Below, in pieces: positions 3,150-38,960 of a stretch of 64,000 bases of DNA. Location: the sequence record NZ_CP025192.1. The stretch is one strand, 5' to 3'. Position numbers and translations under genes: made by a program. Source of the stretch: a plasmid. Each line of letters opens with the position of its first letter. The stretch's first letter is position 1. The notes beneath the pieces are model-generated. The model was not told the origin of the DNA. It did no database searches and was given only the letters and a program-made list of their open reading frames with translations.

Positions 3150-3330
3150 CTGACTGTCTGGAAACTCTGAGCAGGCGGCGCTTCGCCGGAGCATGGTGCG
3201 CGACATCGCCGCGCAGATCATGCCCCCGAACTTATTGAGAGGGCTTGGGTCATCTTGAACCGTGCGCATGCCCAGCGGGCCTTTCAGCCCTACCCGTGGC
3301 GGCAGCTCTTTCAACTGCACCCGAGCCGGC

Positions 3331-4053
3331 TCAATAAGGGTTCGCCAAGGCCACGACCCGATTGCCCGCACCGTCGCCTCGCACCTCCAAGGCCGGCGAT
3401 GTCGACAGGAGGTAAGCGGCCGAGTCGCCCAGCGCGAACGGGAACATGACCGGGCTCGACGAGATGCCATCGACCGGGAGCGCGCGCCCCGCATACCGCA
3501 GGCACGCTTCGCTGAGCCACGCCGCGACCGGCGAGCCGTGCAGATCGATGGCAGGGGCGCGGGTGATCCGCTTCCCGTTGTCCAACTTCTCGATCGTCCC
3601 CCAGCTCGCCTGCGACTGGAGCACCATGTTCGTCATGCGGCGCGTACCCTCGCGCTCCCCGTAGGTCTCCGCCATCCGCCGGTGGACTTCCGCCGACCTG
3701 CAGTCGCCGTGCAGCGCCGTCAGCCGGCCAACGATCTCAGCCACCCTTCCGAAGAAGCTGTAGGTCGCCAGGGCCATACCCCAGGTCAGCGGGACGGCCG
3801 TCGTGGACGGCGCAGCGCGATAGATTCGCGCCCCGCGCGCGGTGAAGTCGAGGAGGTCCGGGCGCGGCTCGAGCCACAGCCTGTTCAGAACCGTCCGGGT
3901 CTTCTTCTTGGCCGCCGGGCCGGGATGCGCGGCGTCCAGCAACGCCGTCAGCTCGCCGAGGCTCGCCAGCCCGGCGCTCACGCGAAGAGCCGCCTCGGCC
4001 AGCTCGAGCGGGACGAAGCGGTCGAAGCCAATCTGTGCGGCGGCCGTGCTCAT
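3331..4053 (-). CDS. brxA: Putative BrxA-like terminal gene of the BREX type 3 operon (function inferred from position only)
   Basis: 240-aa ORF whose ATG overlaps the pglZ stop (ATGA). It occupies the brxA position of type 3 BREX. I cannot verify sequence similarity. Confidence 0.45.
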   Translation of the reverse strand: MSTAAAQIGFDRFVPLELAEAALRVSAGLASLGELTALLDAAHPGPAAKKKTRTVLNRLWLEPRPDLLDFTARGARIYRAAPSTTAVPLTWGMALATYSFFGRVAEIVGRLTALHGDCRSAEVHRRMAETYGEREGTRRMTNMVLQSQASWGTIEKLDNGKRITRAPAIDLHGSPVAAWLSEACLRYAGRALPVDGISSSPVMFPFALGDSAAYLLSTSPALEVRGDGAGNRVVALANPY

Positions 4054-6044
4054 TGATCGGCGTCCGCAACCTGCACCCGCACGAACGGCACGATGAGCTC
4101 CTCGACCGATGGTCCGCCGTGAGCGACGATCCGCTCCCCCCGCGGCACGAACGCCTTCCGAGTGCCCGCGTACACCGGCAACACTTCTGGAGGTAGCCCG
4201 GGCACGCCGAGACGGAAGGTGTCGAGCTCCGAAGGGACGGACGCCGCCAACGCGTCGCTACGGTATGTCCGAACCCTCTCGCCCTTGACCTCGGACACCA
4301 CGCCCTGGCTGAGCCGCCCGATTCCTTCGGCCTCCACGTTCCCGTGGTCGGCCGTCAGGTAGACCTGGTAGCCGTGCCCGGCGAGCAAGCGGACGAGGCC
4401 TTCGGCAAACCCGGTGTCGCACCAAGCGGCGATTTGGCCGCTGATGCCCCGCTTCCCGAGCATCGCCCCGTGCACCAGCTCGTCGACCATGTCGACGACG
4501 ATCCCGGCCACCTTCATTCCCGGCTTAGATATCGCCACGGCCAAGTCGGCCAGTTGCTCCGTCCGCTTCAACCCCTTCGCGTAGCACACCTCCGAGCTGC
4601 GGAGGCCGTTCTCCTGCCAGAAGCGCGCCCAAAGCTGCGGCTCCTGGGCCGTGGTGTCGATGGAGGTGGGGAACTCGCGCGGGCGGAGGCCGGAGAAGAG
4701 GGCCTGCCGGGAAACGGAGGTCAGGGTCGGAAGCCACGCGAAGCACGCGCCATCGTCCGCGGCGAAGCCGCGGACCCGCGCGGCCAGGTGGTCGCGGACC
4801 TGTAGCCACTGGTCCATGGCCAGGCCGTCGAACACCACGAGCGCAACGCGCACCTCGCCGGCGGCGCGGCGCAGCGCGAGGTACCTCGGCACGTGGTGGA
4901 CCATGACCGGCCCCCTCGCGGCCGGGAGGGACGGAAGGTCCGCGAAATGCGTCGTGACCCAGAGCCTCAGGCGATCGTCGGCGTCGCGCTGTAGTTGACT
5001 CACCTGCTGCTCCAGCGGTTTCGCGGCATCCACGTTCAGGGAGTGGAAGCGGAAGATCAGCTCCCCGAGGCGGCGCGCGAAGTCGGCCCAGTCGCGGTGG
5101 GACGACCCCGTCGAAGGTAGATTGGTGGCAAGCCGCCTGGCCCCCTGGCCCACCAAGTCTGCCTGCGTGTGCGGGTCTTCGACCAACCCCACCCTCACCC
5201 ATTCCGGCACGCCGGCGGGCGGCCTCCCGACGCCGACCGGACGAAGCCCGCCATCGAGGAACAACGTGCCGACGATCGCCCGGACGTCGGGGTGCTCGAA
5301 CGGCACCGCGATGGCAATCGACTCCACGGCTTCCGCGTCCGGGCCGCTGCCAGCGTCGATGCCCTGCTGGAGCAGGAACCGGCGCCAGGCATCCTGCAGG
5401 ACGCGCAACGTGAAGCTCATGGATGAGAGCAGATCGGCGACCGGGAGACCTCCGATCGCGGTGTCCTTCAACAGCTGCGCGACGTGGTCGGCCAGCACCC
5501 TCGGCAGGCTCGATCCGCGGTAGTGCAGGCGCAGCAGCTCCCGCCAGAAGTCCTCCGGGCCGCCCAGCATGTAGGGGCTGATCCGGAAGACGCGGGTGAG
5601 GATGAAGTCCTTGGTCGCCGCCTCGCCCAGCGGCTGCGGCGCATGCCGGTCTTGCGCCTGGAACATCGCCTCGTGATGCTCCGAGGCGATCTGCCTCACC
5701 ACGCTGTAGCTCAGCCTCGGGAAGAGGTCTGCCAAGCTGAGGCTTACCGTGCGAGCCTGACGGATGTAGTCCCACGGCAGCACGTTCACGTCGGTTCCGC
5801 GCAGCTGCAACACCAGCGCTTTTTCCGGTCCCGCCTCCCCCCGGTCCCACGCGTCCCGGTAGCGTTCCTCGAACTCCACGCGGAAGACGACCGGGTCGTC
5901 GAAGGGCAGAACCTCGAAGCCTCTCTCCCGGAGGCTGTGCAGCACGGCCTCGTCCAGTAGCACGTCGTCAGGATCGCAGGCGATCCAGAATCGGGCCAGC
6001 TCGGTGGGGAACTCCCGAAGGATCCGGTCGGTCCACGCGCTCAC
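4050..6044 (-). CDS. pglZ: BREX PglZ (alkaline-phosphatase superfamily PglZ domain)
   Basis: C-terminal TADHGN...HGG phosphatase-like motifs typical of the PglZ domain. Start overlaps the upstream helicase stop (ATGA). Confidence 0.8.
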   Translation of the reverse strand: MSAWTDRILREFPTELARFWIACDPDDVLLDEAVLHSLRERGFEVLPFDDPVVFRVEFEERYRDAWDRGEAGPEKALVLQLRGTDVNVLPWDYIRQARTVSLSLADLFPRLSYSVVRQIASEHHEAMFQAQDRHAPQPLGEAATKDFILTRVFRISPYMLGGPEDFWRELLRLHYRGSSLPRVLADHVAQLLKDTAIGGLPVADLLSSMSFTLRVLQDAWRRFLLQQGIDAGSGPDAEAVESIAIAVPFEHPDVRAIVGTLFLDGGLRPVGVGRPPAGVPEWVRVGLVEDPHTQADLVGQGARRLATNLPSTGSSHRDWADFARRLGELIFRFHSLNVDAAKPLEQQVSQLQRDADDRLRLWVTTHFADLPSLPAARGPVMVHHVPRYLALRRAAGEVRVALVVFDGLAMDQWLQVRDHLAARVRGFAADDGACFAWLPTLTSVSRQALFSGLRPREFPTSIDTTAQEPQLWARFWQENGLRSSEVCYAKGLKRTEQLADLAVAISKPGMKVAGIVVDMVDELVHGAMLGKRGISGQIAAWCDTGFAEGLVRLLAGHGYQVYLTADHGNVEAEGIGRLSQGVVSEVKGERVRTYRSDALAASVPSELDTFRLGVPGLPPEVLPVYAGTRKAFVPRGERIVAHGGPSVEELIVPFVRVQVADADQ

Positions 6045-8854
6045 GACGCGCCGCCCGCCGGGCCGCCAACGCGCAGCATGAGAACGGAGTGGAGGTCGGG
6101 CACGCGGATCTCGGCGGCGTCGAGCCGCGCCATGCGGGTCTCGTGCTCCGCGCGCAGGCGCCTGCGGCGATACTCGCGCACGCTCGGGAGCCCGATGCGG
6201 CCGATGGCCTGATACCTGACTTCGTAGGCGTGGCGGGCGCGGTCGCGCTCCTCCCGGATGCGGGCTGCGTGCTCTTCCGCCAGCTCGGCGAAGACCTGCT
6301 CACCGTTGGAGACGGCCGCACGCTTGGCGTCGTGGAACCACCGGCCCGGGACCTTCTCCGAGGAAAGCCCGACCAGCCGGATGCGCTCCGTGACGAGGAG
6401 ATCCCAGATCCGCCTCGCGGTCGGCATGAACATGCGCCCCTCGTCGCTCACGAAGACCGCCAGGAAGCGCCGCCTGCCGAAGTCCTCGGCCGACAGACCG
6501 ATCTGCCAAAGGGACCACACGCCCCTGACGGTATCGGGCAGCCCGCCGACCTCGACCACCGGGAGCGGCTGACCGTCCACGCAGCGGGGCAGCTCGGTGA
6601 TGACGGCCCGGGCCCGCGCGTCCTCGAGCGTGACCCACTCCACGTCCGGCCGGCTCGCCGCGGTACGCGCGTCGAAGCACGCACCGACAGATTCGCTGCC
6701 GTCGATCCAGCGGAGACGCCACGTATCGCCGTCCTTGATCGCAGCGCCCCCCTTCCCCGGCAGGCCGGTCGTGATCGCCCGCTCGAGCCAGAACTGCGCG
6801 GGGTGGTCCTGCCACTTGCGTGCGCCTTCCGCGTCGAGCTCCTGGTCGCCGGCGAGGAGGTCGACGTTCCTGCGGCTCTCTGCGACTGCCGACCGGAGCT
6901 GCGACGCCACCGCATCGCACTCGGCTTCGATCGCGTCCGGGTTCTGGAGGCCCTGCACGAACAGCTCGTCGAACAGCCCGTCCGCCTCAACCGAGTCCAT
7001 CACGTCCGCCGCCTTGTCGACGCCAAACTCCTCCGCGATGACGGCGAGCTTCGCCTCGAGAACCTCGCGGACCCGGTGCTCGACGGTGTCCTCAAGGACC
7101 AGGTTGATCGCGCGCACCACATGCGGCTGGCCGATGCGATCGACGCGACCGATGCGCTGCTCGACCCGCATGGGGTTCCACGGCATGTCGAAGTTGACGA
7201 TCACGTGGCAGAACTGGAGGTTGAGCCCCTCGCCACCGGCGTCGGTGGAGACGAGAATCCTGACGTCGCGGGCGAACGCCTGCTGCGCCCGCGTGCGGGT
7301 CTCAAGGTCCATGCCGCCGTTGAGCGTTGCGACCGAGAAGCCACGCGCCTCTAGGAGCGCGGCGAGCATGGCCTGCGTCGGCACGAACTCCGTGAAGACG
7401 AGGACCTTCAGCTGCGGGTCCCCTTCCTCCTGCTGGAGTTTGTAGATGAGATCCAGCAGCGCCTCGGCTTTCGCGTCGGTCCCCTGGGCCTCAGTAGAGC
7501 GGGCGAGCTCGAGAAGCACCTTGACCTCCGCCTTCTCCGTCTGCCAGCCCCTCGCCTCGACGGCCAAGTCGATCTGCGCCTGGCCGTCCAGATCCGCCCA
7601 CTCGTCGACGTCGGCGGTCTCGAAAAGGGACGGCTGGAGCTGCGGCTGGTCCAGCATTGCCAGGCGGTTCTCAAGCGTCGCGCGGATAGCCGCGGTGCTC
7701 GACGTCACCAGCCTCTGCATGAGTATCATGAGGAACCCGATGTGCCGCTGCTTCGCGGCCAGCGCCTGGTTGTAGCCGTGGCGGACGTAGTCGGTGATCG
7801 CCTCGTAGAGACTCCTCTGGGCCGCGTGGCGGTCCTGCCATGCTACGGGATGCAGCCTCGTCATCCGCGGCTTGAAGAGGGCCCTGCCTTCCGCGTCGAT
7901 CGCGGCGCGCTTCTCCGTCCGGATCACGAACGGCCGGACGCGGTCGCTCGTCACGCTACTCTCGTCGGGGAAGGAATCGCGGTCGAGCAGCTGCATGAGC
8001 CGGTGGAACTGGTCGGTCTTGCCCTGGTGGGGCGTCGCCGACAGGAGGAGCAGGTAGGGTGCGGCCTCGGCCAGCGCCGCCCCGAGCTTGTACCGCGCGA
8101 CCTGGTCCGTGCTGCCGCCCATGCGGTGCGCTTCGTCGATGATGACCAGGTCCCACGACGCCGAGACCAGGTCCTCGAAGCGCTCCCGGTTGTACGTGCT
8201 GAGCTGCTCGAGGGTCCAGCCGCGGCGCCCGTCCAGGGGCTTTACGGAATCGAGCGAGCAGATCACCTGGTCGTGGAGTCGCCAGAGGTTCTCCTCGTCG
8301 CTGCGCCACTGGCGGAAAGCGGAGAGCTCGGCCGGTTCGACGAATTGGAAGCTCTCGCCGAAGTGCAGCCGCATCTCCGCCTGCCACTGGCGCACGAGCC
8401 CCTTGGGCGCGACGACGAGGATCCGCTTCGCCATGCCGCGGAGCTTCAGCTCGCGTAGGATCAGCCCGGCCTCGATCGTCTTCCCGAGGCCCACCTCGTC
8501 CGCCAGGAGGTAGCGGATCCGGTGGCGCGCCATCGCGCGGTTCAGCGCGTAGAGCTGGTGCGGCAGCGGCACCACGCTGGACTGGACCGGCGCGAGCAGG
8601 AGGTCGTCCTCCAGCGCGTCGAGCAACCTCGCCGCCGCTGCGGTATGCAGGACGTGTTCGACCGTGGGCTGGACGGAGCCGAGCTGCGCGAGATCCTTCT
8701 CGCGGGCGCGTACGACAGCGTCACGGCTAGGCAGCCAAACCCGATAGGCGACCTCGCCCCAGATCTCTTCCCGGTCGATCACCCGGCAGGGTGCGGCATG
8801 TCGTCCGTGCCAACACCAATCGCCTACCGAGTGCCTGCCGCCGAGCTTGTTCAC
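6041..8854 (-). CDS. brxHII: BREX type 3 SNF2-family helicase BrxHII
   Basis: SNF2 motifs LLADEVGLGKTIEAG and LVIIDEAHRMGG (DEAH box) plus a helicase-C region. The ORF extends to 8980, but the GTG at 8854 overlaps the pglX stop (GTGA) and is the likely start. Confidence 0.8.
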   Translation of the reverse strand: MNKLGGRHSVGDWCWHGRHAAPCRVIDREEIWGEVAYRVWLPSRDAVVRAREKDLAQLGSVQPTVEHVLHTAAAARLLDALEDDLLLAPVQSSVVPLPHQLYALNRAMARHRIRYLLADEVGLGKTIEAGLILRELKLRGMAKRILVVAPKGLVRQWQAEMRLHFGESFQFVEPAELSAFRQWRSDEENLWRLHDQVICSLDSVKPLDGRRGWTLEQLSTYNRERFEDLVSASWDLVIIDEAHRMGGSTDQVARYKLGAALAEAAPYLLLLSATPHQGKTDQFHRLMQLLDRDSFPDESSVTSDRVRPFVIRTEKRAAIDAEGRALFKPRMTRLHPVAWQDRHAAQRSLYEAITDYVRHGYNQALAAKQRHIGFLMILMQRLVTSSTAAIRATLENRLAMLDQPQLQPSLFETADVDEWADLDGQAQIDLAVEARGWQTEKAEVKVLLELARSTEAQGTDAKAEALLDLIYKLQQEEGDPQLKVLVFTEFVPTQAMLAALLEARGFSVATLNGGMDLETRTRAQQAFARDVRILVSTDAGGEGLNLQFCHVIVNFDMPWNPMRVEQRIGRVDRIGQPHVVRAINLVLEDTVEHRVREVLEAKLAVIAEEFGVDKAADVMDSVEADGLFDELFVQGLQNPDAIEAECDAVASQLRSAVAESRRNVDLLAGDQELDAEGARKWQDHPAQFWLERAITTGLPGKGGAAIKDGDTWRLRWIDGSESVGACFDARTAASRPDVEWVTLEDARARAVITELPRCVDGQPLPVVEVGGLPDTVRGVWSLWQIGLSAEDFGRRRFLAVFVSDEGRMFMPTARRIWDLLVTERIRLVGLSSEKVPGRWFHDAKRAAVSNGEQVFAELAEEHAARIREERDRARHAYEVRYQAIGRIGLPSVREYRRRRLRAEHETRMARLDAAEIRVPDLHSVLMLRVGGPAGGAS

Positions 8855-11628
8855 CCGCCCCCCTCGGTCCGGGTGAGCGCCTGATCGTACCAGAGGAGGA
8901 GCTTCTCGTCCTCCTGCAGCGCCTCCTCGGGAATCTTCTGGGCGACGTCGATGATGATTTTGTAGTTCTTGGCCGACCAAGCCACCTTGAAGCCCGCGCG
9001 GAGCACTTCAAGACGGAACTCCTTCAGCCGTCGTCCGGGAGCTACTCGATACCCCTCGAACTCTTTTAGCAAAGCCCTCTCACGCTTCTGCTCCAGATCT
9101 TGCGCCTTACCAGGATCCGGCACGAACCAGCGGTCCTTCGCTTTTGCTTTCAACACTGGATCAGATTTCTCGCGATTCCGCATTTCATGATAGTTTGTTG
9201 AAAGATAGTTATGGATTTGGCTGGGCACATCGCTAGATCCATCGTAGCGCAAGAAATTGTCCTCAAGAAGATCGGAAAGTTCGGGGCGTGTTTCGTGCTT
9301 TTTCCAGCCTGCCCCGAGCTGAGTGATGAACTCCGGGTGCAATTCCTGGTAGGTCGATGGCCGCTTCCGGAGAAAATCGGTCAACCAATCGATGGCGCTA
9401 CGTTCGTCTGCAACGAACATTTCCATTTGCGGTGCCTTAGGCACTTGAGCGCGCTTCTTATCATACTCAATGACCTGATCAGGCAAGAATACCATGCCGT
9501 CTCGCTCTGGAAAGCGGCTCCGAAGACCTTCCTGAAACTCTTGGCTGGAAAGAGGCACAGGCACATTGTGCCGGATAAACCACGCCACCATACGGTCAAA
9601 CAGGATGCGGGGATCGCGCTCCGCGATGAACTCGAGCGCGGCAGCCTTCTGTTTTGTCACTGGCAACTGACGAAGATGGGTCTGGACAAAATCCCAGGCT
9701 GACTCCATTGCAGGCTGGTTTTCAAACCGCTGTTCCAATCCGCCATTCGGTTTATATGCCGATATTATGAGATCCTGCTTTACTGCGACGGTAGTGGTAA
9801 CGGACTTGAAACTTCCCTGCTTCTTGTCGAGAGTTGACACATCGGCAACCACGAACCCAGCTTCTTGTAAAGCGGTTTGCAGGCTGTTCCAAACAGACGC
9901 TTGTGTATTCGAAAATACAACAGTCATCCACCGACCTGGTTTGAGGACACGGTAATATTCAGCGAAGCAAGAGGCCATTATTCGACGATAATCATCAAGA
10001 GATTTTTGTGATGCACGATTTTCTTTGGACCGGTCTACAATCGCATCAAGCCGTGCGTCCGTCATAACGCCATGCCATGCCTCAACAAGAAAATTGAGTT
10101 CTGCGTACGGTAGATTTTCTCCGAACGGAGGGTCGGTGAATACATAGTCGATCGAGGAGTCTTCTAGGGGGAGTTTGGCTGCTGTGCCTGTGGTTGTGAT
10201 AGCATTCTGTGATCTAAGCCTGAAGGCGTCGAAAGCCTTCTCAAGACGGCTCAGCTTACCTTCAAGAATATACCACGGACTGCATTCTGCATGCTGCGCT
10301 CCAACATAATAAACGCCAGCCAGATATTGGTTGACTTGCGAAAAGTGAGTTGGCGCATATCGCGCGAGGATGGACATACCCCAAATCGCTTGCTCTACGA
10401 AGTACATCAACATCGATCGAATGCGGCCATCTTTGTAATTACACGCGCTCCGCCACAAAGCTCCCATGCCGTGCGCTGCACGAGACAGAAACATGTCTTG
10501 AACAGACGTAACGCCTTTGTCACGCATTCGTGGAGCTTCCCACATATCGGCATATGGGAAGCCGGTGGTGGGGACCTCTTCTGGAATAGGAAGGTCGTTG
10601 ATTTTCTTGATGAGAGCTAGGTCAGCAGCATCTGGCTTCTTCTCATACCGGGTGCCGCCCACTTTATACGAGATTAACGAAGGCGCGCGCTTGGGGACGC
10701 TTATCGTCTTGCCGGACAGAGCATCAATCTTCGTCTCATAGCGACGATCCAGCTTCTTTTTCGTAAGTGTTGCGCCGCAGTGGGGGCATGGAAATTCGTC
10801 CCGCACTCGCTTAGTCGAATCATCGAGTGCTTCGTCGATGAAATTCACTTCGTCGGCGCAGTCGGGACACGTGAAGAGTTCGCTCCAAACCGTGAACTCA
10901 ATTCGCCCCTTCGTTTTCCGATCTACATGCAATGTTTCATACATCCAGCCAATCTCGCGCTCGACTTCAGCGAGCAACCGCTTCCCGGCGGCGGCAAAGG
11001 CGCCGACATCAAATGGTAGATTATAGTTCGCGGCGATGAAGGTCGCCGCCGGCGACAGGTCGTTCAAAACGACCTTGCGTGCGCCCCATCGGGGCGCTGG
11101 TTGGCCAGCCTTCTTCCACTCCATCTCGAGCTGCTGGCGGTAGGTGGCGGGCGCCGTGCCGCACCATTGTGCCGCCACGCCTGTCATGCCTGACCCAGCA
11201 AAGCCGTCGAGCACGACGTCACCCGGTTCGGTGAAGTGCAGGATAGACGGCACGATGGCCAAGTGCGGCACTTTGGTGTGATAGGAGTGCGCCTTATAGA
11301 TCGGGTCCGTCTTACCGACCGAGACATCAATCGCCATCGGCTCGCGCGCATACTCCTTGGCCGGGTCGTAGGGCTTGCCGCAGTGCTTCACGAAATCGGC
11401 TAGCCAAGGGTTAGGGCAGGCCGTGTAGTAGGGCGGATCCGACATGGCCAGGATCGCCTCGTCGGTCCCCTTCGGGAACCCCTCCTGTGTGCGGAAGGCG
11501 GGGTCCTTCAGCTTCTCGGCCAGCAGCTTCCGGAAATGCTCGCGGCGCGCGTCCTCGTTCGGAAAGGTCAGCCCCAGGCATGTCACCGCACCTGCCGCGC
11601 CAGGGCGAGGGATCAGAGTCTCATTCAT
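8851..11628 (-). CDS. pglX: BREX adenine-specific DNA methyltransferase PglX (type 3 PglXI, N6_N4_Mtase family)
   Basis: 925 aa with DPPY and FTDPPFGENLPY methyltransferase motifs. It sits between brxC and the SNF2 helicase. The central and C-terminal part has markedly lower GC. Confidence 0.85.
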   Translation of the reverse strand: MNETLIPRPGAAGAVTCLGLTFPNEDARREHFRKLLAEKLKDPAFRTQEGFPKGTDEAILAMSDPPYYTACPNPWLADFVKHCGKPYDPAKEYAREPMAIDVSVGKTDPIYKAHSYHTKVPHLAIVPSILHFTEPGDVVLDGFAGSGMTGVAAQWCGTAPATYRQQLEMEWKKAGQPAPRWGARKVVLNDLSPAATFIAANYNLPFDVGAFAAAGKRLLAEVEREIGWMYETLHVDRKTKGRIEFTVWSELFTCPDCADEVNFIDEALDDSTKRVRDEFPCPHCGATLTKKKLDRRYETKIDALSGKTISVPKRAPSLISYKVGGTRYEKKPDAADLALIKKINDLPIPEEVPTTGFPYADMWEAPRMRDKGVTSVQDMFLSRAAHGMGALWRSACNYKDGRIRSMLMYFVEQAIWGMSILARYAPTHFSQVNQYLAGVYYVGAQHAECSPWYILEGKLSRLEKAFDAFRLRSQNAITTTGTAAKLPLEDSSIDYVFTDPPFGENLPYAELNFLVEAWHGVMTDARLDAIVDRSKENRASQKSLDDYRRIMASCFAEYYRVLKPGRWMTVVFSNTQASVWNSLQTALQEAGFVVADVSTLDKKQGSFKSVTTTVAVKQDLIISAYKPNGGLEQRFENQPAMESAWDFVQTHLRQLPVTKQKAAALEFIAERDPRILFDRMVAWFIRHNVPVPLSSQEFQEGLRSRFPERDGMVFLPDQVIEYDKKRAQVPKAPQMEMFVADERSAIDWLTDFLRKRPSTYQELHPEFITQLGAGWKKHETRPELSDLLEDNFLRYDGSSDVPSQIHNYLSTNYHEMRNREKSDPVLKAKAKDRWFVPDPGKAQDLEQKRERALLKEFEGYRVAPGRRLKEFRLEVLRAGFKVAWSAKNYKIIIDVAQKIPEEALQEDEKLLLWYDQALTRTEGGG

Positions 11629-13495
11629 TGTCGGCCTCGTTCGTGGGGCGCGCCGCGGGCTGACGGCCTGCGCGCAGCGCTCGGAGCTTGATGCCGGCCT
11701 CCGTCAGCACATACTGCTGGTTTGGCGACCGAGGTTTGTCCGGTACGGTCATTCGCAGTACGCGCGCCTGCAGAAGCGGCTCGAGGTACTGTGCCATGAA
11801 GTGCGGACGCTGCTTGTAGCCCGCCCGCGCCATGAGATCTGCGAGGCTGCGCGGCACGTCCGCGTGCTCGACGACGCGCCACTGGCCTTCAGTCAACCGA
11901 TCAAGCGACCGAACAAGCTCGGGCTGGCTGTCGGCAGCTTGTTCGGTGGCTTGTTCGGTCGTGGATGACGCCGTTGTCTGGTCCCCGCCCCCTTGGCCCT
12001 GTGGCGCCGCACCGGCCAGCGACGGCCCGTAACGCGAGCGGAGATGGGCGGGCAGCGTGTACTGAGCCCCCCCGGTTTCTAGCGGTGCCACCAGAACCTG
12101 GGCAACCAGGCGCTCGATAACCGCCTTCGCCGCAGCACTGGTCAGGCCCGTGAGCGCCTTGACGTCGGTGAGGTCGATGTGGCCGCGGCGGGTAAGGTAC
12201 GCGAAGACCGCCGCCTCGTGCTCCGACAGGCTGGCCCCGAGGCTCGCCTGAGCCAGGAGCTGCTCCTCGGTGATCAGCTTCTCCTTCCGCATCGTCAGCC
12301 GGAAGGTCTTGTCCGCCTTGTCGTTGTCGATCTCCGGCGGGAGATAGCCGAGGCTCCGCCAGCCGTTGAAGATCGCGCCGACCCCGGTGCCGCCCTGGTC
12401 GGACAGACCGATACGCCGGAAGGCGTTCACGACGCTTGGGTTGCGGACCTCCTTGTCGCCGGGGTCCAGCAGCCTTTCCCTCGGGGAGAACGCATCGCCC
12501 GGATTGAAGAACTCGGTCTGGTTATGGAAGAACCTGATCACCGGGAGCCGTGTGTGGTCAGAGAAGTCCTGGTGGATGAGCAGGTTGATGGCCGCCTCGC
12601 GGAAGGACACGTAATCGGCGGGGTCATCGTCGCGTCTAAAGGTCGCCGCGTCGACCGAGAACGGGCGCTCGCTGTGCTTGAAGTAGAAGCCGACGATGCT
12701 CTGCCAGGTCTGGATCAGGTTCTCTTCGCAGGTCACGCGGTCCGCCCAGCGGACGCTCGGGGAGTAGTCATCCGCGCCGCTCCGATACAGCTGCAGGTCT
12801 ACCGCCATGCGGGGTAGGATTTGACGGAAGTAGCCGTCCGCGCCCAGCGTGAGGATCGCTGCCCGAGTCGGGAGCAGGACGCCGCCGTGCTCGACGACGA
12901 AGCTCCACCTGCGCAGGAAGGCGTCATCGTCGTCGCCCTCGTTCCTCCCTGGGTTGCTGGCGTTGAAGCGTGCCCGGTACCACCGCAGCGATGCTGCGTC
13001 GAAGCACTGTTTGATGTCCAAATCCAACGGCTCAGCATCGAAGCGCTCGGTGGCCCCATCCCGATAGAAGCGGAGCAACTCGTCGGCGGTGCACGTGTCA
13101 TCGCGACCACCCCGACGGATGAATGCCTTGCGCAGATCCCGGTCGATGTAGACCGGCTTAGCGCGACGTTCGGCCTCGGGGATCCAGAAGGCCAGCACCG
13201 TGCCTTCGGGCAGATTGTGCAGGTGAGCGCGGACAGGCAGCCGTACGCTAATCTTGTTCAGATCGCGCAATTGGCCGAGGAAGTCGTTCTGAACATTGTC
13301 CGCCTCGACGACGCCGGTGACCGAGAAGGAGCCGCGCGTCTCCTTGACCCCGAACACGAGGTACCCACCCGACGTATTGGCGAACGCGCTCACCGTGGAG
13401 AAGGCATTGCGCGGCACCATCGTGGCGGCCTCCTTGAACTCCACGTCGTTCCATTCGATGGACTGGAGCTTCGCCAGCAACTCGTCGCGGGTCAT
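11621..13495 (-). CDS. AlbA_2 (Schlafen-like) + HATPase_c_4 + C-terminal wHTH protein inserted in the BREX operon
   Basis: SIEWNDVEFKEA...SAFANTSGGYLVFGV matches the AlbA_2 signature. AINLLIHQDFSDH...FFNPGD matches the HATPase_c_4 signature. The ATG at 13495 lies 2 nt after the brxC stop, and the 3' end overlaps the pglX start by 8 nt. The ORF runs to 13930, but its N-terminal 145 aa are an overlap artefact. Confidence 0.7.
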   Translation of the reverse strand: MTRDELLAKLQSIEWNDVEFKEAATMVPRNAFSTVSAFANTSGGYLVFGVKETRGSFSVTGVVEADNVQNDFLGQLRDLNKISVRLPVRAHLHNLPEGTVLAFWIPEAERRAKPVYIDRDLRKAFIRRGGRDDTCTADELLRFYRDGATERFDAEPLDLDIKQCFDAASLRWYRARFNASNPGRNEGDDDDAFLRRWSFVVEHGGVLLPTRAAILTLGADGYFRQILPRMAVDLQLYRSGADDYSPSVRWADRVTCEENLIQTWQSIVGFYFKHSERPFSVDAATFRRDDDPADYVSFREAAINLLIHQDFSDHTRLPVIRFFHNQTEFFNPGDAFSPRERLLDPGDKEVRNPSVVNAFRRIGLSDQGGTGVGAIFNGWRSLGYLPPEIDNDKADKTFRLTMRKEKLITEEQLLAQASLGASLSEHEAAVFAYLTRRGHIDLTDVKALTGLTSAAAKAVIERLVAQVLVAPLETGGAQYTLPAHLRSRYGPSLAGAAPQGQGGGDQTTASSTTEQATEQAADSQPELVRSLDRLTEGQWRVVEHADVPRSLADLMARAGYKQRPHFMAQYLEPLLQARVLRMTVPDKPRSPNQQYVLTEAGIKLRALRAGRQPAARPTNEADNE

Positions 13496-13497
13496 GG

Positions 13498-16400
13498 CTA
13501 CTCCACCACGAACCGCAGTTTGGTGGTGTCCCTGCCCTTGCACCGGTCGCTCAGGAACGTCTCGAAACGCTTGCGCAGGTCCTCGGGCGTGGCCGGCGAA
13601 CCGCCCTGGAGCAGCGCCTGCTTGATCTCGCCGCCGGTGACTGGGATCTTCTCGAGGCCTGACAGCGCCTCCTGCACCGCCGCGACGAAGTCCGAGCCCA
13701 CCGGATCGGGAAGCGCCTTCGACGCGACGAACCCGTCGACCAGCTTCCGGGTCGCGGGCTTGAGCAGGTCGAAGTTCGCCTGGATTATCGGGTCTTCCAG
13801 GTTGTCCAGCAGCGTCTGCTGCCACCCATCGAGCAGCCGGTCGAGCTCGCCGTCCAGCTGCTTCAGCATGGTCGCTGCCGGCAGCATGTCGCCCTGTTCG
13901 CTCGTCGGCCGGAAGTGGCAGTGTGGGCAAACAGGACTGGCTGCGAGGTCCGCATCCATCAAAGAGTCGCAGCTCTTTAGCTTGCCGAGCTTGTCCTCGA
14001 AGCTGTCGAGCTGGCTGGTGGGCATCAAGGAAATGTTGCGGAGCACTCGCATTGCGATCAGCCGACCGTCCTTGCGCAGAGCTTCCTTACTCTTGTTCTC
14101 CGCCACGCCGAGGCGCGCTCTGCTATGCTGCCCGACGTAGGCAGCAACGTAGTCTTTCTTCAGGCGTGCCAGGATTTGCCGGTACTCGCCTGCGTGCTGC
14201 GCAGTTCGATCGGTTGCGAGCCGCTCAAACACCTGCTTGCGCGCCGCTTGCGCCTGCTGCACCCAGGGATCATCGCCCGTCAGCACCATCTCGGCCTGCG
14301 AGAGGTAGCCGGCCGCGGTGCCCAATTCCGCGACGAGTTCCAGCATGCGTTCGACGGCGTCCAGCGCCTCCAGGTGCTTCTTTTGCGCCGCCACGTCGTC
14401 CGAGCCGACGCGCAGGTTCTTGAGCTTGCCCACCGTGTTGTACGGAGACAGACTCTCCGCGAAGGCCTTCAGCGCATCCAGCTTCGCCCGCCAGTCGGCG
14501 AGCTCGTTCTCGCGCAGGAGCGGCTGCCCCCAGAAGCTCAGCCGTCCCGCCATATCGGTCGTCGCGGCGAGCACGCGCCGCGTCAGCTTCGTGACCTCCT
14601 CCTGCAGCCGCTTGACCGGCTCGTCGGACCCCTGCGCGGCCTGCTGCGCGAGACCGGGCTGGAGGCCGAGCATCTCGAATAGCGCGCGAAGGACGGCGAC
14701 GTTGATCTCCCGCGGGGCCTCGACGTGCTTAAACTGCCGGAGCTCGTCGAGCGGCCGCTCGGCGAGCAGCGCGATCTTGCCAGGATCGATCTTGTCGCCG
14801 GCGACCGCCAGCACGATGTCGCCCGAGTAGACGAGTGCGCCCAGCACCGCGACGAGCAGATCGGGCTCTAGCCGGAACTTGAGCGGCGCGAAGTACTCGA
14901 CGTCGGCGCCGCCGCTCAGCAGCTCGCCGCGGTTCAGCACCTGCCCGTGGCCCTTCGCCTTGAGACGCGAGAGGACCTCCTGCGCGTAGCGGGACCGCTC
15001 CGGGTCGAGGCGATCGCCGTCCAGCATCTCGAGGCCGTCCAGGATGACCACCGCGTCCTTGGTGCGGGGCCCGCCGGCGAGGGCGCGCAGCGCGTTCCCA
15101 ACGAGCTGCTTTCGGTTCGCCTCGGTCAGCAGCGCAGTGAACGTCGGGTACTCGGGCGCCACCTCAGCGAACCGGTTGCCCAGCGCCACGCCGGCGATCA
15201 CGTTCACCACGTCGCGGAAGTTGATGCGCTCGTCGGGCCGCAGCCGCGCCTTGTCGCGCAGCGAGATCCCCTTCGTCCACTCCTGTAGGGTCCGGGCCTT
15301 GCCCTGGTAGGTGACCTCGTAGGCCGCCATTTGCTTTTCCTGCAGCCACTTGCCCATCTCGCGCAGGGCGTCGTTCGCCTTGTCGAGGTAGACGCTTTTG
15401 GCGGCGCCGCTGGCGGTCGACGCGAGGTCCTGCGCAGCGGCGTAGCAGGACAGGTGCCGCCTGATCGCGTCGTCGGGGCCCTTGAGCCGGAAGAACACCT
15501 CGTCGGCCTTGTGCTCGTCGCGAAAGCGCGGCGGCTCGAACGGCTGGATGAAGTAGATGTAGAAGTCGCGCTCGGGCTGCGCCGTCGGCCGGTCGTTCGG
15601 CGCGCCGAAGAAGAGGTAGCCGATGCGCTCGACGCGGCGCTCCTGCCACTCGATCTGGTACTGCCAGATCTGGTGGCCGGCGACGTAGGTGGTCTCGTCC
15701 GTGCGCTCCATGAGCTGGCGGACCGCGCTGAAGTAGGCGCGGTCGAGCGCGTCGTCCGAGAGCGCCTCGGCCCGCTTCTCGATCTGGGCGTCGTAGTCGA
15801 CGTCCTTCTTTAAATCCAGGAAGTACTGGTCGGTGTCGGGCGCCCTGGAGATGAACTGGCCGTTGACGGTCTTCAGCGTCTCGCGGAGGACGGTCTGCAC
15901 CAGGGAAAGCAGGTCGGCGTCGGGCTCGCCGCCCATCGCGTCGATGCCCGGTTGGAACAGGCAGAGCGTGTCCCGCAGTTCGGTGGCGGTTGGCCCCACG
16001 GGCACGTAGATGTCCCCGCCCGTCGTCAGCCGGTGCACCGAGAGGCCGTTGATGATCCGGAGCGCCATTGGCCGGTAGGCGGGACGGGTGAACGCCTTCC
16101 TTACCCGTTCGGACAGAACCTCGGAAACTTTCAGCACCGGCCCGATGCTCGGGTCGGCGCGGAGGACGGAGTTGGCCGTGATCGTGTCCCAGAACCTGTC
16201 GTAGCCGATCAGCCCCGGGCGGTCGCCCGGTACCTCGTCGTCCAGGATGTCCTGGATCTGGTCGCGGAGGGTGACCAGCGCGCCGCGCTTCTCGGCGAAG
16301 ACCAGGCGCTCGAACGTCCCGATGTAGTCGGGGTGCACCGGGAACAGCCGCACGTAGTCGTCCATGCGCTCGTTCATGGACCCGTAAAACTTGGAGAACG

Positions 16401-17253
16401 GCGCCAGGTACGCCCGGATCCGCTCCTGCTGGTCGGCGGTCTTCTTCAGCAGACGCTCCGCCACGACGAAGCTGACGTCCTGCCGGGCGAGCAGGATCTG
16501 CGTGAACCGGTCCTTCACGCGGCGCAGGCTGTCGGCCACGTGCTGGAAGCGGCTGCTGTCGAAGACCGCCTCCTGGACGCCGGCGACGAAGCGGAACCTC
16601 AGGTGCTTCGTGACCTCGCCGATCTCCCGCAGGAAGGACAGGTCGAGGACGAGGTCGTGGTCCCTCCGGGACCGCAGGTACTCGAGGAACTCGTCGACGA
16701 CGAGGAGTACGCCCTGGTTTGGGTGGCGCTCGGCGAAGGCCGCCATCATCTCCTCGAAGGCGGCCTTGTTGTTGATGACCTTGTTGGCCGGCGGGAAGAC
16801 GTAGCTTACCCCGTTCTTCTCTAAGAAGATCTCGAGCTGCTGCGTGACGATGTCCCGCAGGGACATCTGGCTCGAGATCTCGATGCGGTGCACCTTGAAC
16901 TTCCCGGCGATCGCCGCGGCCGCCTCGGCGACCTTAGGATGGCGGATCATCGGGACGTACGCGGCGTCTTCGGCCACCAGCGAGAGTACCGACATGAGGT
17001 GCGACTTGCCGGTGCCGTAGTTCCCGACGACGAGCACCCCCTTGTGGTCCACCGCCTCGTCGAACGAGAGCTGCGGGACGATGAGCTTCGCGATCCGCTC
17101 AGCCATGTCGTCCGAGATCACGTAGGTCGACACCAGCTTCCGCGCCTCGTCCGGGCGGTTGGCGTCCAGAAGTTGGATGACGGACTCGATCGGCTCGAAC
17201 TGGATCAGGTCGCCATAGCGCATCGGCATCCGGTCTTTCCTGCTAACCAACAT
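13498..17253 (-). CDS. brxC: BREX ATPase BrxC/PglY (large P-loop protein)
   Basis: 1251 aa with Walker A GNYGTGKSH near the N-terminus. Size and position match BrxC. Confidence 0.85.
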   Translation of the reverse strand: MLVSRKDRMPMRYGDLIQFEPIESVIQLLDANRPDEARKLVSTYVISDDMAERIAKLIVPQLSFDEAVDHKGVLVVGNYGTGKSHLMSVLSLVAEDAAYVPMIRHPKVAEAAAAIAGKFKVHRIEISSQMSLRDIVTQQLEIFLEKNGVSYVFPPANKVINNKAAFEEMMAAFAERHPNQGVLLVVDEFLEYLRSRRDHDLVLDLSFLREIGEVTKHLRFRFVAGVQEAVFDSSRFQHVADSLRRVKDRFTQILLARQDVSFVVAERLLKKTADQQERIRAYLAPFSKFYGSMNERMDDYVRLFPVHPDYIGTFERLVFAEKRGALVTLRDQIQDILDDEVPGDRPGLIGYDRFWDTITANSVLRADPSIGPVLKVSEVLSERVRKAFTRPAYRPMALRIINGLSVHRLTTGGDIYVPVGPTATELRDTLCLFQPGIDAMGGEPDADLLSLVQTVLRETLKTVNGQFISRAPDTDQYFLDLKKDVDYDAQIEKRAEALSDDALDRAYFSAVRQLMERTDETTYVAGHQIWQYQIEWQERRVERIGYLFFGAPNDRPTAQPERDFYIYFIQPFEPPRFRDEHKADEVFFRLKGPDDAIRRHLSCYAAAQDLASTASGAAKSVYLDKANDALREMGKWLQEKQMAAYEVTYQGKARTLQEWTKGISLRDKARLRPDERINFRDVVNVIAGVALGNRFAEVAPEYPTFTALLTEANRKQLVGNALRALAGGPRTKDAVVILDGLEMLDGDRLDPERSRYAQEVLSRLKAKGHGQVLNRGELLSGGADVEYFAPLKFRLEPDLLVAVLGALVYSGDIVLAVAGDKIDPGKIALLAERPLDELRQFKHVEAPREINVAVLRALFEMLGLQPGLAQQAAQGSDEPVKRLQEEVTKLTRRVLAATTDMAGRLSFWGQPLLRENELADWRAKLDALKAFAESLSPYNTVGKLKNLRVGSDDVAAQKKHLEALDAVERMLELVAELGTAAGYLSQAEMVLTGDDPWVQQAQAARKQVFERLATDRTAQHAGEYRQILARLKKDYVAAYVGQHSRARLGVAENKSKEALRKDGRLIAMRVLRNISLMPTSQLDSFEDKLGKLKSCDSLMDADLAASPVCPHCHFRPTSEQGDMLPAATMLKQLDGELDRLLDGWQQTLLDNLEDPIIQANFDLLKPATRKLVDGFVASKALPDPVGSDFVAAVQEALSGLEKIPVTGGEIKQALLQGGSPATPEDLRKRFETFLSDRCKGRDTTKLRFVVE

Positions 17254-17782
17254 TGAACGGCACCCACCCTTCCGTGCCGTAGTTCTGGTGCTCCGGGTGG
17301 CCCGGCACCGCGTAGACCAGACGCCCGTCCCGCAGCTCTCCCGGCCAAGCGGCGACGACGCGGCGCCCGTGGGAGTGCCGCCTCATCAGGTCCAGGGGAC
17401 TGAGCCGTAGGGTCCAGTCGAAGAGGAGCTCTATGTTGTCCCAGAGCAGCAGGTCACGGCCGACCGTCCCGTCGGCCAGTTCCTTCAGCAGGTCGGGAGC
17501 CATGAGGTGCCGTTGGGACGCGGGCAGCGGGACGAGGAGGCGGCCGAGAGCCTCGCCCAGCCGCATGACGGGGGCATTCCGGCGCGTGGAAAGCTGCCCC
17601 AGCAGCTTGCTCTTGCCGGATCCCGGAGGACCGACGAGGAGCACGAGCTTGCTATTCAAGCCCGCGACGTCTTCGACGAGGCGCTCAAGGATGTCGATCA
17701 CGGTACGCGCCTTGAACAGAGCCGAAGGTTCCGACCTCGAGCCGCATCGAGCGCCGACGCGAGGCTCTCTGGCGGAGGGCAC
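17243..17782 (-). CDS. brxF: BREX type 3 small P-loop ATPase BrxF
   Basis: 179 aa with Walker A LVGPPGSGKSKL. It is the first gene of the operon and overlaps the brxC start by 11 nt. Confidence 0.65.
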   Translation of the reverse strand: MPSAREPRVGARCGSRSEPSALFKARTVIDILERLVEDVAGLNSKLVLLVGPPGSGKSKLLGQLSTRRNAPVMRLGEALGRLLVPLPASQRHLMAPDLLKELADGTVGRDLLLWDNIELLFDWTLRLSPLDLMRRHSHGRRVVAAWPGELRDGRLVYAVPGHPEHQNYGTEGWVPFNVG

Positions 17783-17810
17783 GGAGCGGCTCGATCAGGG
17801 GTGCTCATCG

Positions 17811-18011
17811 TCAGGATTTGGACTGGGCAGGCACAGGGCGGACGGGGGATGAGCGACCCGCCTCGATCGCCTTGAGGCGGTCGAACTCCTCGAAGGCCAT
17901 CACCACGACGACCGGTCGTCCGTGCTTGGCGACGATCAGCGGCTCGATCCGGGCGAGGTCGATCAGCCGACCGAACCCGTACTTCGCCTCCTTGGCGGTC
18001 AGCGTCTTCAT
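17811..18011 (-). CDS. Phd/YefM-family antitoxin-like protein (orphan; possible regulator)
   Basis: MKTLTAKEAKYGFGRLIDLARIEPLIVAKHGRPVVVVMAFEEFDRL matches the Phd/YefM antitoxin fold. The ATG at 18011 has GGAG 6-9 nt upstream. The gene ends 29 bp before brxF. Confidence 0.6.
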   Translation of the reverse strand: MKTLTAKEAKYGFGRLIDLARIEPLIVAKHGRPVVVVMAFEEFDRLKAIEAGRSSPVRPVPAQSKS

Positions 18012-18225
18012 GCTCCACTCCGGATACGAGACGACCATCGGCCAAAATGGCCAAAATTTCAATCTCCGCGGGATGAGCAGACCCGGCACCGCGCCGTGCG
18101 GGCGGGGTGACTTGCCGGTGCAGGGCATGCGGCCCGTTGGCAAGTACTGGTCCGCTCATGGAGATGACGACTGCCAGCAGGATTGCCTGCTCGCGCCGAG
18201 GCAAGCCCACCGCATATCGAATAGA

Positions 18226-18256
18226 TGCTAGCAATTACCTTGTTGGCGCTAGCTTG
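18226..18256. repeat. GCTAGCA-type motifs (ATGCTAGCAA, GCGCTAGCTTG) upstream of parA; candidate centromere or operator sites
   Basis: Member of a recurring GCTAGC(A) motif family. Other copies lie at 18982-18993, 20739-20752 and 21399-21435. Confidence 0.35.
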
Positions 18257-18310
18257 AGGATGCTACGACCTGCGTGATGACGTGCGTCGGTAGGGCCGAA
18301 GGGGGACGGA

Positions 18311-38528: not shown

Positions 38529-38851
38529 AGCTAGACCTCATTACCTCATGAGGTAACTTCATGTCCTCATGGTCTCATGAGGAATATTAACTGCCTTGTC
38601 TGCGGTGGTCCGCAGTCTCCGTCTAGCCATTACGTCCGAACGATAACCGAGCCGGCCGCTACAGCGGCTCGGCGCATTCGTGGTTCCGGACTGCTGGGTA
38701 GGCGGCAAGGACATGAAGTCCCTCACAGCGATTGCCGTTTCCGTTCGCACCGCAGCTGACAATCCTCGAACCGGGCCGGATTGGAGGGCAACGGGTATGA
38801 GAGGACATCTGGGGGGCAGGGAAGATCCGCTACCGCTAGCGTCGGACGCGC

Positions 38852-38960
38852 GACAAGGGTTCGTCGCTGCGCTCCCGCGCCGGGGCAGGCCCCGGCCGCG
38901 CCCTTGTCCCGCCTCCGCCTCGCGGTCGCCGGGTGGAATCCAGGCGAAGGATTCCGGGCG
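38852..38960 (+). repeat. Leader repeat copy 1 (GCAAGGGTTCGTCG...GCGCCCTTGTCC), upstream of the DUF3991/Toprim gene
   Basis: Member of an 8-copy family that ends in an RBS + start codon. Confidence 0.6.

Follow-up and report, generated by a model that had tools for sequence, protein, structure and literature searches.

We analyzed a 64,000-nt stretch of plasmid NZ_CP025192.1 (the window; GC content about 0.69). The proteins of the window are 100% identical to database entries from Roseomonas mucosa, a human skin commensal. The minus strand at 3331–17701 appears to encode a complete, plasmid-borne bacteriophage exclusion (BREX) operon of type 3, and we put the probability of this reading at about 85%. 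The operon consists of seven intact, contiguous open reading frames (ORFs) in the order brxF-brxC-slfn-pglXI-brxHII-pglZ-brxA, with a phd-like gene ahead of them:

17243–17701, minus strand: brxF, P-loop protein, 152 amino acids (aa) from GTG 17701, Walker A motif GPPGSGKS
13498–17229, minus strand: brxC, DUF6079-type ATPase, 1243 aa from ATG 17229, Walker A motif GNYGTGKSH
11621–13495, minus strand: slfn, embedded accessory gene, 624 aa, with SLFN_AlbA_2, HATPase_c_4, and Fic-like_C domains
8851–11628, minus strand: pglXI, predicted N6-adenine methyltransferase, 925 aa (PADLOC PglXI; PF01555)
6041–8854, minus strand: brxHII, SNF2-family helicase, 937 aa from GTG 8854 (PADLOC, Pfam)
4050–6044, minus strand: pglZ, alkaline-phosphatase-fold protein, 664 aa, GTG start (NF033449)
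3331–4053, minus strand: brxA, type 3 form, 240 aa, last gene of the operon (PADLOC BrxA)

We compared the window's proteins to the profile libraries of Pfam, PADLOC, and NCBIfam. All of the genes except slfn belong to the core of type 3 BREX, which comprises BrxF, BrxC, PglXI, BrxHII, PglZ, and BrxA according to two papers (PMC10799925; PMC12839542). The family assignments of these six have E-values from 5e-48 to 0. BrxF scores 162.5 bits against NF033453 (BREX_3_BrxF; cut-off 50) and has an E-value of 2.1e-36 for PADLOC's BrxF. BrxC matches PF19557 (DUF6079) over positions 1–1238 of 1238 (1896 bits) and PADLOC's BrxC model PDLC02482 (1753 bits); it reaches only 70 bits against the type 1 model NF033441 (cut-off 400), as expected for the type 3 form. 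PglXI matches PADLOC's PDLC02541 over positions 17–918 of 919 (1331 bits). BrxHII matches PDLC02500 (BrxHI/BrxHII) over 3–929 of 933 (1401 bits), as well as SNF2-rel_dom (1e-19) and Helicase_C (5e-23) from Pfam. PglZ covers positions 2–641 of the 642 in NF033449 (BREX_PglZ_3; 666 bits, cut-off 250) and also matches PF08665 (2.5e-23, 83 bits, cut-off 25) and PADLOC's PglZ (730 bits). BrxA is recognized by PADLOC's model alone (PDLC02444; 2.4e-55 over 1–247 of 251), with no match in Pfam or NCBIfam; its position and size are the same in every relative. Because profile coverage is essentially end to end in all six core proteins, the system appears to be complete and undecayed.

A preliminary description of this DNA had already called it a complete BREX type 3 operon, and our results agree: the six core proteins match end to end, and BrxF and PglZ pass their subtype models. 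The profile searches that it proposed found matches for the PglZ, BrxC, BrxF, methyltransferase, and SNF2 products; these include the PglZ and BrxC models, chosen beforehand as the ones that could overturn the assignment, which do match the 4050–6044 and 13498–17253 products. The six genes it named are intact and lie where it placed them, but its list left out the 624-aa ORF at 11621–13495. The core genes do follow the described type 3 order, but with slfn embedded among them, the layout is not the canonical six-gene one. The preliminary description was also right about the family of the "DPPY methyltransferase," but its DPPY is probably residues 64–67, whereas the core motif is DPPF at 499–502. 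In PglXI, the match to PF01555 (3.6e-17) is split between residues 116–158 and 493–650; motif I (FAGSG) is at about 143–147, an invariant zinc finger is formed by C254/C257/C281/C284, and the DPPF is the predicted catalytic motif. There are two invariant DPP[YF] motifs in PglXI: DPPF lies within the Pfam-matched core, and DPPY(Y) at 64–68 lies in an N-terminal "prelude."

The closest operons to this one are in a metagenome-assembled genome (L006) and in Teichococcus oryzae (L007, assembly GCA_008386565.1); L numbers mark related loci. The junctions within the operon range from -8 to +13 nt. The stop of brxC and the start of slfn, TAGCCATG, leave a 2-nt gap (13498/13495), slfn and pglXI overlap by 8 nt (11621/11628), pglXI and brxHII share GTGA (8851/8854), and pglZ and brxA share ATGA (4050/4053). 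These four junctions read just as previously described. An ATGA had been reported at 6041/6044 as well, but brxHII and pglZ share GTGA there, because the start codon of pglZ is GTG. Also, the 11-nt overlap of brxF and brxC (17243/17253) depends on starting BrxC at ATG 17253. In four related loci, BrxC has 1243 aa and starts 12–14 nt past the stop of brxF; the Pfam and PADLOC matches to BrxC start at residue 11; and GAAAGGA precedes ATG 17229. For these reasons, brxF and brxC are most likely separated by a 13-nt spacer that includes a Shine-Dalgarno sequence for brxC. The start of brxF had been placed at 17782, but it is most likely GTG 17701, because BrxF has 152 aa in L007, L008, and L009 and because the NCBIfam match begins at residue 31 of the long ORF. 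The earlier claim of translational coupling at every junction thus fits five of the six junctions but probably not brxF/brxC.

L006 and L007 have the identical 2-nt gap and 8-nt overlap on either side of slfn, and the 4-nt overlaps at brxHII/pglZ and pglZ/brxA recur in most relatives. The tight junctions are real and conserved, yet they are ordinary for a compact operon. The operon is probably one transcription unit, based on the geometry of the junctions and because a scan of 2900–18400 for promoters and terminators found nothing above chance. Co-translation through the overlaps would also fit this geometry.

Slfn is a Schlafen-like protein. It matches SLFN_AlbA_2 (PF04326; 3e-15, 57 bits, cut-off 25.3) at residues 5–126, followed by HATPase_c_4 (GHKL-like; 5e-9) and a C-terminal Fic-like_C winged helix-turn-helix (wHTH) domain (1.5e-14; both from Pfam). 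Its matches in the structure database include PDB 2KYY (AlbA_2/RecG-related; 7e-7) and Schlafen 8 (0.011). The predicted catalytic motif is intact (E14-WNDV-E19-F-K21): E14, E19, and K21 are each kept in at least 95% of 39 homologs and are invariant in A3 and A5. The motif Ex4(E/D)xK is needed for phage defense by a bacterial Schlafen, and fusions of the HisKinase-HTH type account for 19% of bacterial Schlafens (bioRxiv 10.1101/2025.07.24.666596). A 2026 paper in NAR describes proteins with a Schlafen domain and a minimal histidine kinase, along with a wHTH, within BREX or BREX-related loci from at least 1017 taxa, and named them backup suicidal effectors (PMC12839542). The presence of slfn in a BREX locus is thus already known in kind. 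By analogy, Slfn is most likely a second-layer effector: a predicted RNase that would be restrained by its GHKL-like and wHTH domains.

All five of the Slfn homologs whose surroundings we examined (from Pseudomonas aeruginosa, Bradyrhizobium, Burkholderia, Teichococcus, and a metagenome-assembled genome) sit between brxC and pglXI. We also collected 80 metagenomic loci by similarity to Slfn alone (43–71% identity). In 60 of the 80, brxC is upstream and pglXI is downstream; in another 14, brxC or pglXI is on one side and the other side is off the contig; four have the gene between pglXI and brxHII; and two are unclear. This subfamily of Slfn is nearly confined to BREX-3 (at least 74 of the 80 metagenomic loci). 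Plasmid-borne COG2865 proteins from outside BREX-3 are at most 30% identical to Slfn and lack the C-terminal part, while the subfamily within BREX-3 is at least 43% identical. The only clear non-BREX context that we saw for the subfamily is L176, on the Methylomonas plasmid CP157006.1 (279617–280807), where a 43%-identical homolog is truncated or split and no BREX genes lie within 9 kb. We considered whether Slfn and BrxC diverge strictly together and rejected this: the Pearson correlation is 0.55, and there are pairs in which BrxC is 99% identical but Slfn only 45%. For instance, L020 and L029 have 99% identical BrxC, and their Slfn proteins are of subtypes that are 45% identical and occupy different slots.

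To describe those slots, we scanned a genome collection with an alignment of PglXI. There were relatives in at least 567 stretches, and we kept the 80 that were most similar in PglXI, so these are not a random sample. The brxC-pglXI junction was defined in 70 of them: it was empty (at most 300 nt) in 18 and occupied in 52. The occupants include:

Slfn-family genes: 19 loci by tblastn, up to 25 by clustering
a 629-aa HATPase_c_3 protein: 9 loci
a protein of about 450 aa without a Pfam match: 8 loci
AAA_21 + DUF4276 pairs (PARIS-like)
SIR2_2 + HerA
OLD-type AAA_15/TOPRIM genes

The brxC-pglXI junction is a recurrent cargo site of BREX-3, and the cargo gene in the window is translationally interlocked with its neighbors by the 2-nt gap upstream and the 8-nt overlap downstream. 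A second slot, between pglXI and brxHII, has inserts of 1.2–6 kb in about a third of the loci (L010–L089). This slot sometimes holds a Slfn subtype of about 45% identity (L018, L020, L024, L028, and L153–L160); in the window, there is a 4-nt overlap instead.

Parts of Slfn also occur separately. The C-terminal wHTH is found as a stand-alone 141-aa protein with slfn-type repeats (L073:9456–9881), and it is found fused to a DUF4276 (AriB-like) protein (L045:8554–9402) and to another slot protein (L041:4989–6530). Two slots from Spirochaetia (L079:6025–8722 and L084:7660–9838) encode a HATPase_c_4-wHTH protein without the Slfn nuclease domain, preceded by two small unrelated ORFs (114–162 aa and 265 aa).

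Within the operon, pglXI stands out by composition. Its GC content is 0.549 (0.62 at third codon positions, or GC3), versus 0.65–0.70 (GC3 of 0.83–0.92) for the other six genes. The dip spans about 8900–11000; the preliminary description had not remarked on it, strong as it is. Identity to the closest operons drops in the same region. L006 and L007 are 81–96% identical to the window in BrxF, BrxC, Slfn, BrxHII, PglZ, and BrxA but 71–73% identical in PglXI. In sliding windows, nucleotide identity to L006 and L007 is 80–96% outside of about 11050–9000 and 52–69% inside, and the drop coincides with the fall in GC content to 0.45–0.57. Two lower-GC loci, L008 and L009, are nearer to the window within the tract (67–81%). 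A two-breakpoint maximum chi-square test on parent-informative sites gave values of 312–421, as compared to at most 19 in 100 permutations. These results delimit one feature:

about 9007–11056, minus strand: recombinant lower-GC tract in pglXI, about 2 kb, codons ~195–875, GC content of ~0.51 versus ~0.68 (identity, GC content, maximum chi-square)

The ends of the tract are approximate (10996–11056 and 9007–9154). Within it are the predicted target-recognition insert, the latter half of the methyltransferase core, and the greater part of the C-terminal HTH region, and it includes the zinc finger and the DPPF half of the catalytic core. The insert of PglXI was assigned as the target-recognition domain on structural grounds (PMC12839542). 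In a search of 5.8 billion proteins, residues 196–500 of PglXI were at best 77% identical to another protein, and residues 501–875 were at best 88% identical; both came from other lineages. For residues 1–195, the closest were sister-lineage-type proteins (P0218, P0220), at 92%. The exact recombinant PglXI is present on eight contigs from several samples. As judged from these comparisons, this pglXI allele arose by recombination: about 195 codons at its start and about 50 at its end are from the local high-GC lineage, and the ~2 kb between them appear to have come from a lower-GC relative within BREX-3.

This is not peculiar to the window. We compared 53 loci with BrxC, BrxHII, and PglXI in a pairwise manner and found that pairs with 90–99% identity in BrxC and BrxHII are often just 53–80% identical across residues 200–870 of PglXI. 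For L008 and L015, the identities of BrxC, BrxHII, and mid-PglXI are 98%, 96%, and 73%; for L020 and L029, they are 99%, 98%, and 70%. The divergence of PglXI is centered on residues ~260–500 (mean pairwise identity of 42–55%), and the ends of the tracts vary; residues ~95–203 and ~865–920 form invariant blocks. These patterns argue that exchange of the recognition region recurs across BREX-3 loci. In a literature search, we came across no report that PglXI recombines or is mosaic; the mosaic pglXI and the general decoupling of the recognition region are modest new observations that seem to be unreported.

The other unusual feature of the operon is in slfn:

11896–11959, no strand assigned: inverted repeat in the linker codons of slfn, aa ~513–534 (repeat search)

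Its arms are 24 nt long and 92% complementary, with a 16-nt loop, and it encodes a disordered linker ahead of the C-terminal wHTH. After two direct 12-nt units (ACCGAACAAGCC and ACCGAACAAGCT) come 16 nt and then two inverted units (AGCTTGTTCGGT and CGCTTGATCGGT). Each unit amounts to four codons: ACCGAACAAGC occurs twice and encodes TEQA TEQA, while GCTTGTTCGGT and then GCTTGATCGGT encode LVRS LDRL in a different register. As RNA, the inverted repeat is predicted to fold at -41 kcal/mol (z = -5.45), and none of 200 shuffled sequences was as stable. The consensus of the 12-nt unit is AC(C/T)G-NN-CAAG(C/T), and direct and inverted copies with stems of up to 25 bp are found at the corresponding site in L001–L170. 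The four copies in slfn are the only exact ones in the window, and across 2.37 Mb of related loci, clusters of the motif are restricted to slfn linkers. Homologs change both arms together and retain the architecture:

left arm ACCGATCAAGT, right arm ACTTGATCGGT
left arm ACTGCACAAGC, right arm GCTTGTGCAGT
left arm ACTGAACAAGT, right arm ACTTGTTCAGT
left arm ACTGTACAAGT, right arm ACTTGTACAGT

In a clade at 43–53% identity, the two orientations abut as ACTTGGTCACTGACCAAGT, which is repeated two to four times. A third group of homologs has direct repeats only.

For a covariation test, we imposed the window's 24-pair stem on an alignment of 40 sequences, so the evidence rests on the imposed structure: 85.6% of cells pair, as compared to 78.9% if columns are shuffled (none of 500 shuffles reached the observed value) or 16–36% in slid registers. 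Cells with changes on both sides number 82, versus 36 expected (0/500 shuffles), and 11 of the 24 stem pairs show compensatory types. CAAG never varies in the two left-arm units, and CTTG varies little or not at all in the right arm. Even synonymous positions are frozen: the codons are CAA and CTT, and CAG or CTG are never used. About half of the codons in the window's repeat end in A or T, within a gene whose GC3 is 0.83.

We rejected several explanations for the repeat. The 12-nt units are not target sites of PglXI: they track the Slfn lineage and not the recognition region of PglXI, since the window, L006, and L007 share the units but differ in the recognition region, and since loci whose PglXI proteins differ greatly all have the same CAAG core. 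A role as an operator used elsewhere in the operon is not supported, given that there are four copies only and that clusters lie solely in slfn linkers. Nor do brxC-pglXI junctions have a hairpin in general, as the spacers of empty slots fold no better than shuffled sequences. A search of 1–24000 with Rfam 15 found nothing at the gathering thresholds; the sub-threshold hits at 11879–11977 are spurious look-alikes of miRNA hairpins.

The repeat could be a stem in RNA, an operator or a cruciform in DNA, or a quasi-palindrome that perpetuates itself. As an RNA hairpin, it could be a stem of RNase III size, a target for the Slfn RNase in its own mRNA, or an obstacle that slows ribosomes before they reach the translationally coupled pglXI. 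As an operator, it could be bound by the wHTH that is encoded directly downstream. The slfn linker element was not found described in a literature search, and this conserved inverted repeat is another modest new observation that seems to be unreported.

Several results weigh against parts of our interpretation, and we present them together with the alternative explanations. It is vanishingly improbable that the locus is not BREX but DISARM or a DUF499 "BREX-related" methyltransferase-helicase system. The helicase does score 363 bits against the DrmD model NF038317 (under its cut-off of 610), and PglXI-like methyltransferases are known in BREX-related systems (PMC12839542). But PglZ is of the BREX-3 subtype and passes the curated cut-off, BrxF and BrxA are present, the ATPase is DUF6079/BrxC and not DUF499, and profile searches did not find DrmA, DrmB, or DrmC among the operon's products. 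With PglZ, BrxC, and BrxF in place and DrmD as the sole cross-match, we ruled out DISARM. As for function, our literature search found no type 3 BREX that was shown to methylate DNA or to exclude phage. Slfn might not be an effector but a regulator or sensor of BREX expression or of nucleic acids, or an unrelated hitch-hiker. Two of its regions resemble a wHTH, and in the AlphaFold model, whose mean pLDDT of 45.8 gives no structural support, only the C-terminal Fic-like wHTH was modelled with confidence. Databases name its homologs "transcriptional regulator" or "RNA-binding domain-containing protein," and COG2865-type proteins are often labelled as transcriptional regulators. Slfn has no match among the PADLOC and NCBIfam models, and the HisKinase-HTH class is not among the Schlafens that were shown to defend (bioRxiv 10.1101/2025.07.24.666596). 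The gene is also dispensable, as 18 of the 70 loci have nothing at the brxC-pglXI junction and others have different cargo, and near-identical BREX-3 cores (L020, L029) carry different Slfn subtypes in different slots. On the other hand, the E-x4-E-x-K triad is so well conserved (at least 95% of homologs) that it is hard to explain for a pure DNA binder, and the other cargo of this slot consists of known effector modules. Also, Slfn does not look like a random passenger because it is nearly confined to BREX-3 and is translationally interlocked with its neighbors. We consider it unlikely that Slfn is a regulator or hitch-hiker, and we prefer the effector.

The low GC content of pglXI might be intrinsic to the family, without any recombination. 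Indeed, in 53 of 53 loci, pglXI has a lower GC content in its target-recognition and C-terminal parts than the flanking genes do, with the recognition part lower by 0.086 on average; because the dip is partly family-wide, composition alone would overstate the case for transfer. Also, the donor of the tract was not found in the search of 5.8 billion proteins, and we infer, rather than observe, the change in specificity. However, the deficit in the window (-0.163, versus a mean of about -0.07) is the most extreme among the 54 loci compared, and the loss of identity to the sister loci is confined to the tract, with flanks at 80–96%. The informative sites switch parent far beyond what permutation gives, and many other pairs of loci show a like decoupling, such as L020 and L029 (flanks at 99% and 98%, mid-PglXI at 70%). 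If L006 and L007 were the recombinants instead of the window, a recombination event would still be implied. A purely compositional explanation is therefore highly improbable. The inverted repeat is harder to judge. It might have no function and be a by-product of linkers built from repeated tetrapeptides (T-x-Q-V/A) that replication slippage and template switching at quasi-palindromes keep alike. The linker is predicted to be disordered, and the number and orientation of the copies vary by locus (FFF, FFR, FFRR, FRR), with one clade having direct copies only. RNAalifold returned an empty structure for the 40-sequence hairpin alignment, with no consensus structure, and the mismatches show no sense-strand excess of G-U over A-C (14 versus 37), which would have been the signature of a sense RNA. 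Yet the repeat persists from about 90% to about 43% protein identity, its arms stay complementary through two-sided changes, the synonymous positions are frozen, and the A/T-ending codons run against the composition of the gene. We regard a by-product as a real possibility, though less likely than not.

How might these parts work together? By analogy to BREX in general and to its types 1 and 2, PglXI would N6-methylate adenines of a short motif on the host's DNA, and the BrxC ATPase, BrxF, BrxHII, PglZ, and BrxA would jointly block the replication of unmarked DNA. By analogy to Schlafens, the Slfn RNase, once triggered, would cleave tRNA or rRNA and lead to abortive infection. The recombinant tract has presumably given pglXI a new motif to methylate and exclude. 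The Slfn-type wHTH may be a shared adaptor that joins cargo effectors to BREX-3, and the arrangement in L079 and L084 may be an effector swap. We tentatively speculate that the slfn linker element sets the dosage of both the RNase and the downstream BREX proteins, while the specificity of BREX-3 diversifies by exchange of the PglXI insert. In any case, the locus remains a known system, and the added features do not change what kind of system it is.

In the literature that we searched, type 3 BREX has been analyzed by computation only, so a complete, compact example in a culturable bacterium is a useful test object. If the specificity swap is real, then it is a natural experiment, as the window, L006, and L007 share 81–96% identical machinery and differ in the recognition region of PglXI. 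The methylomes of this strain and the sister strains could give the first map from motif to recognition region for type 3, and also a check on where structure has placed the recognition insert. A Schlafen that is essentially specific to BREX-3 and is interlocked with brxC and pglXI makes the "backup effector" layer testable in its native context, and a conserved nucleic-acid element within a predicted toxin gene may control the toxin's dosage. This locus seems to be a good experimental entry point into type 3 BREX.

The operon is surrounded by these genes:

131–1240: integrase
1383–3149, plus strand: GmrSD-family (DUF262/DUF1524-type) gene (PADLOC candidate system HEC-05, 739 bits)
17811–18011, minus strand: Phd/YefM-like gene, 66 aa, without a toxin partner (Pfam PhdYeFM_antitox, 1e-11)
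18311–18973: ParA
19727–20737: RepA_C
21512–22183, plus strand: AAA_33 kinase-like gene
22062–23189, minus strand: DUF559/MTES_1575 endonuclease-like gene
38781–39914, plus strand: 377-aa ORF ahead of the helicase, no PADLOC match
40125–42275, plus strand: UvrD-type helicase (PADLOC GajB, 1e-85; model of a DRT-associated helicase)

The Phd/YefM-like gene is 109 nt upstream of brxF and has GGAG before its ATG at 18011. It has orthologs in the same place in L006 and L007 only (82–85% identity); at this position, other BREX-3 loci have BrxR/WYL or HTH_17 genes. Its product is a candidate for an alternative transcriptional regulator of the operon. At the other end, the GmrSD-type gene converges on brxA, whose stop is about 180 nt away, and by analogy it is likely to be a type IV restriction partner of the BREX operon.

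ParA, RepA_C, and two integrase genes flank the BREX island. From 23472 onward, the sequence is 99.9% identical to the R. mucosa plasmids CP099475.1 and NZ_CP025063.1. Positions 1–23471 have no match in PLSDB in a search for near-identity, and the reference plasmid carries unrelated genes at the 23472 boundary. Thus, 1–23471 has the appearance of a module specific to this strain or of a small replicon that was co-integrated, with its left end outside of the window. A repeat search found no attachment-site-like repeats flanking the region, and a tRNA scan of the window found none. Between the replicon genes and the backbone boundary, the endonuclease-like and kinase-like genes lie in a patch of lower GC content (0.64–0.66). 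On the shared backbone, the pair at 38781–42275 may be another defense module.

It's useful to compare this locus to known systems. The window shares with canonical type 3 BREX the six core genes, at full length, in the canonical order and on one strand; it differs in having the seventh gene, the Phd/YefM-like gene upstream, and the mosaic pglXI. A close annotated example is plasmid pRA04 of Roseicitreum antarcticum (NZ_CP061499.1, annotated by PGAP). It is also plasmid-borne and has the same order of seven genes, which are annotated as brxF, DUF6079, "RNA-binding domain-containing protein" (this is Slfn, at 59% identity), methyltransferase, helicase, pglZ, and hypothetical. In contrast to the window, it has WYL/BrxR upstream, its genes are 56–81% identical to the window's, and three direct units make up its repeat element, in which a strict pattern finds no inverted copy.

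Slfn shares the Slfn/AlbA_2 domain with Ex4(E/D)xK, the GHKL-like domain, and the wHTH with the HisKinase-HTH class of prokaryotic Schlafens (pSlfns) and with the BREX backup effectors. The pSlfns that have been tested experimentally have other sensor domains (immunoglobulin-like or DUF262). BxaP is a precedent for a non-core defense gene inside a BREX-3 operon (PMC10799925), but it is unrelated to Slfn in sequence, its place is between pglXI and brxHII, and it is rare, occurring in 0.29% of BREX loci, while slfn lies between brxC and pglXI and is common (19–25 of 70 loci). As cited in PMC12839542, type 1 BREX has been paired with BrxU, a type IV enzyme of the GmrSD family. In the window too, a GmrSD-type gene adjoins the BREX operon; unlike the BrxU case, it lies on the other strand, converges with brxA, and is beside a type 3 system, and the two might possibly co-operate.

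Finally, genes of Type I (HsdS), Type IIG, and Type III restriction-modification systems have hypervariable recognition segments that are exchanged by recombination between conserved flanks. No invertible or shufflon-type repeats were seen. Unlike those genes, the variable segment of PglXI is an insert in the methyltransferase fold, and the tract in the window runs on through the C-terminal HTH region. As in those systems, near-identical BREX-3 operons carry different specificity modules.

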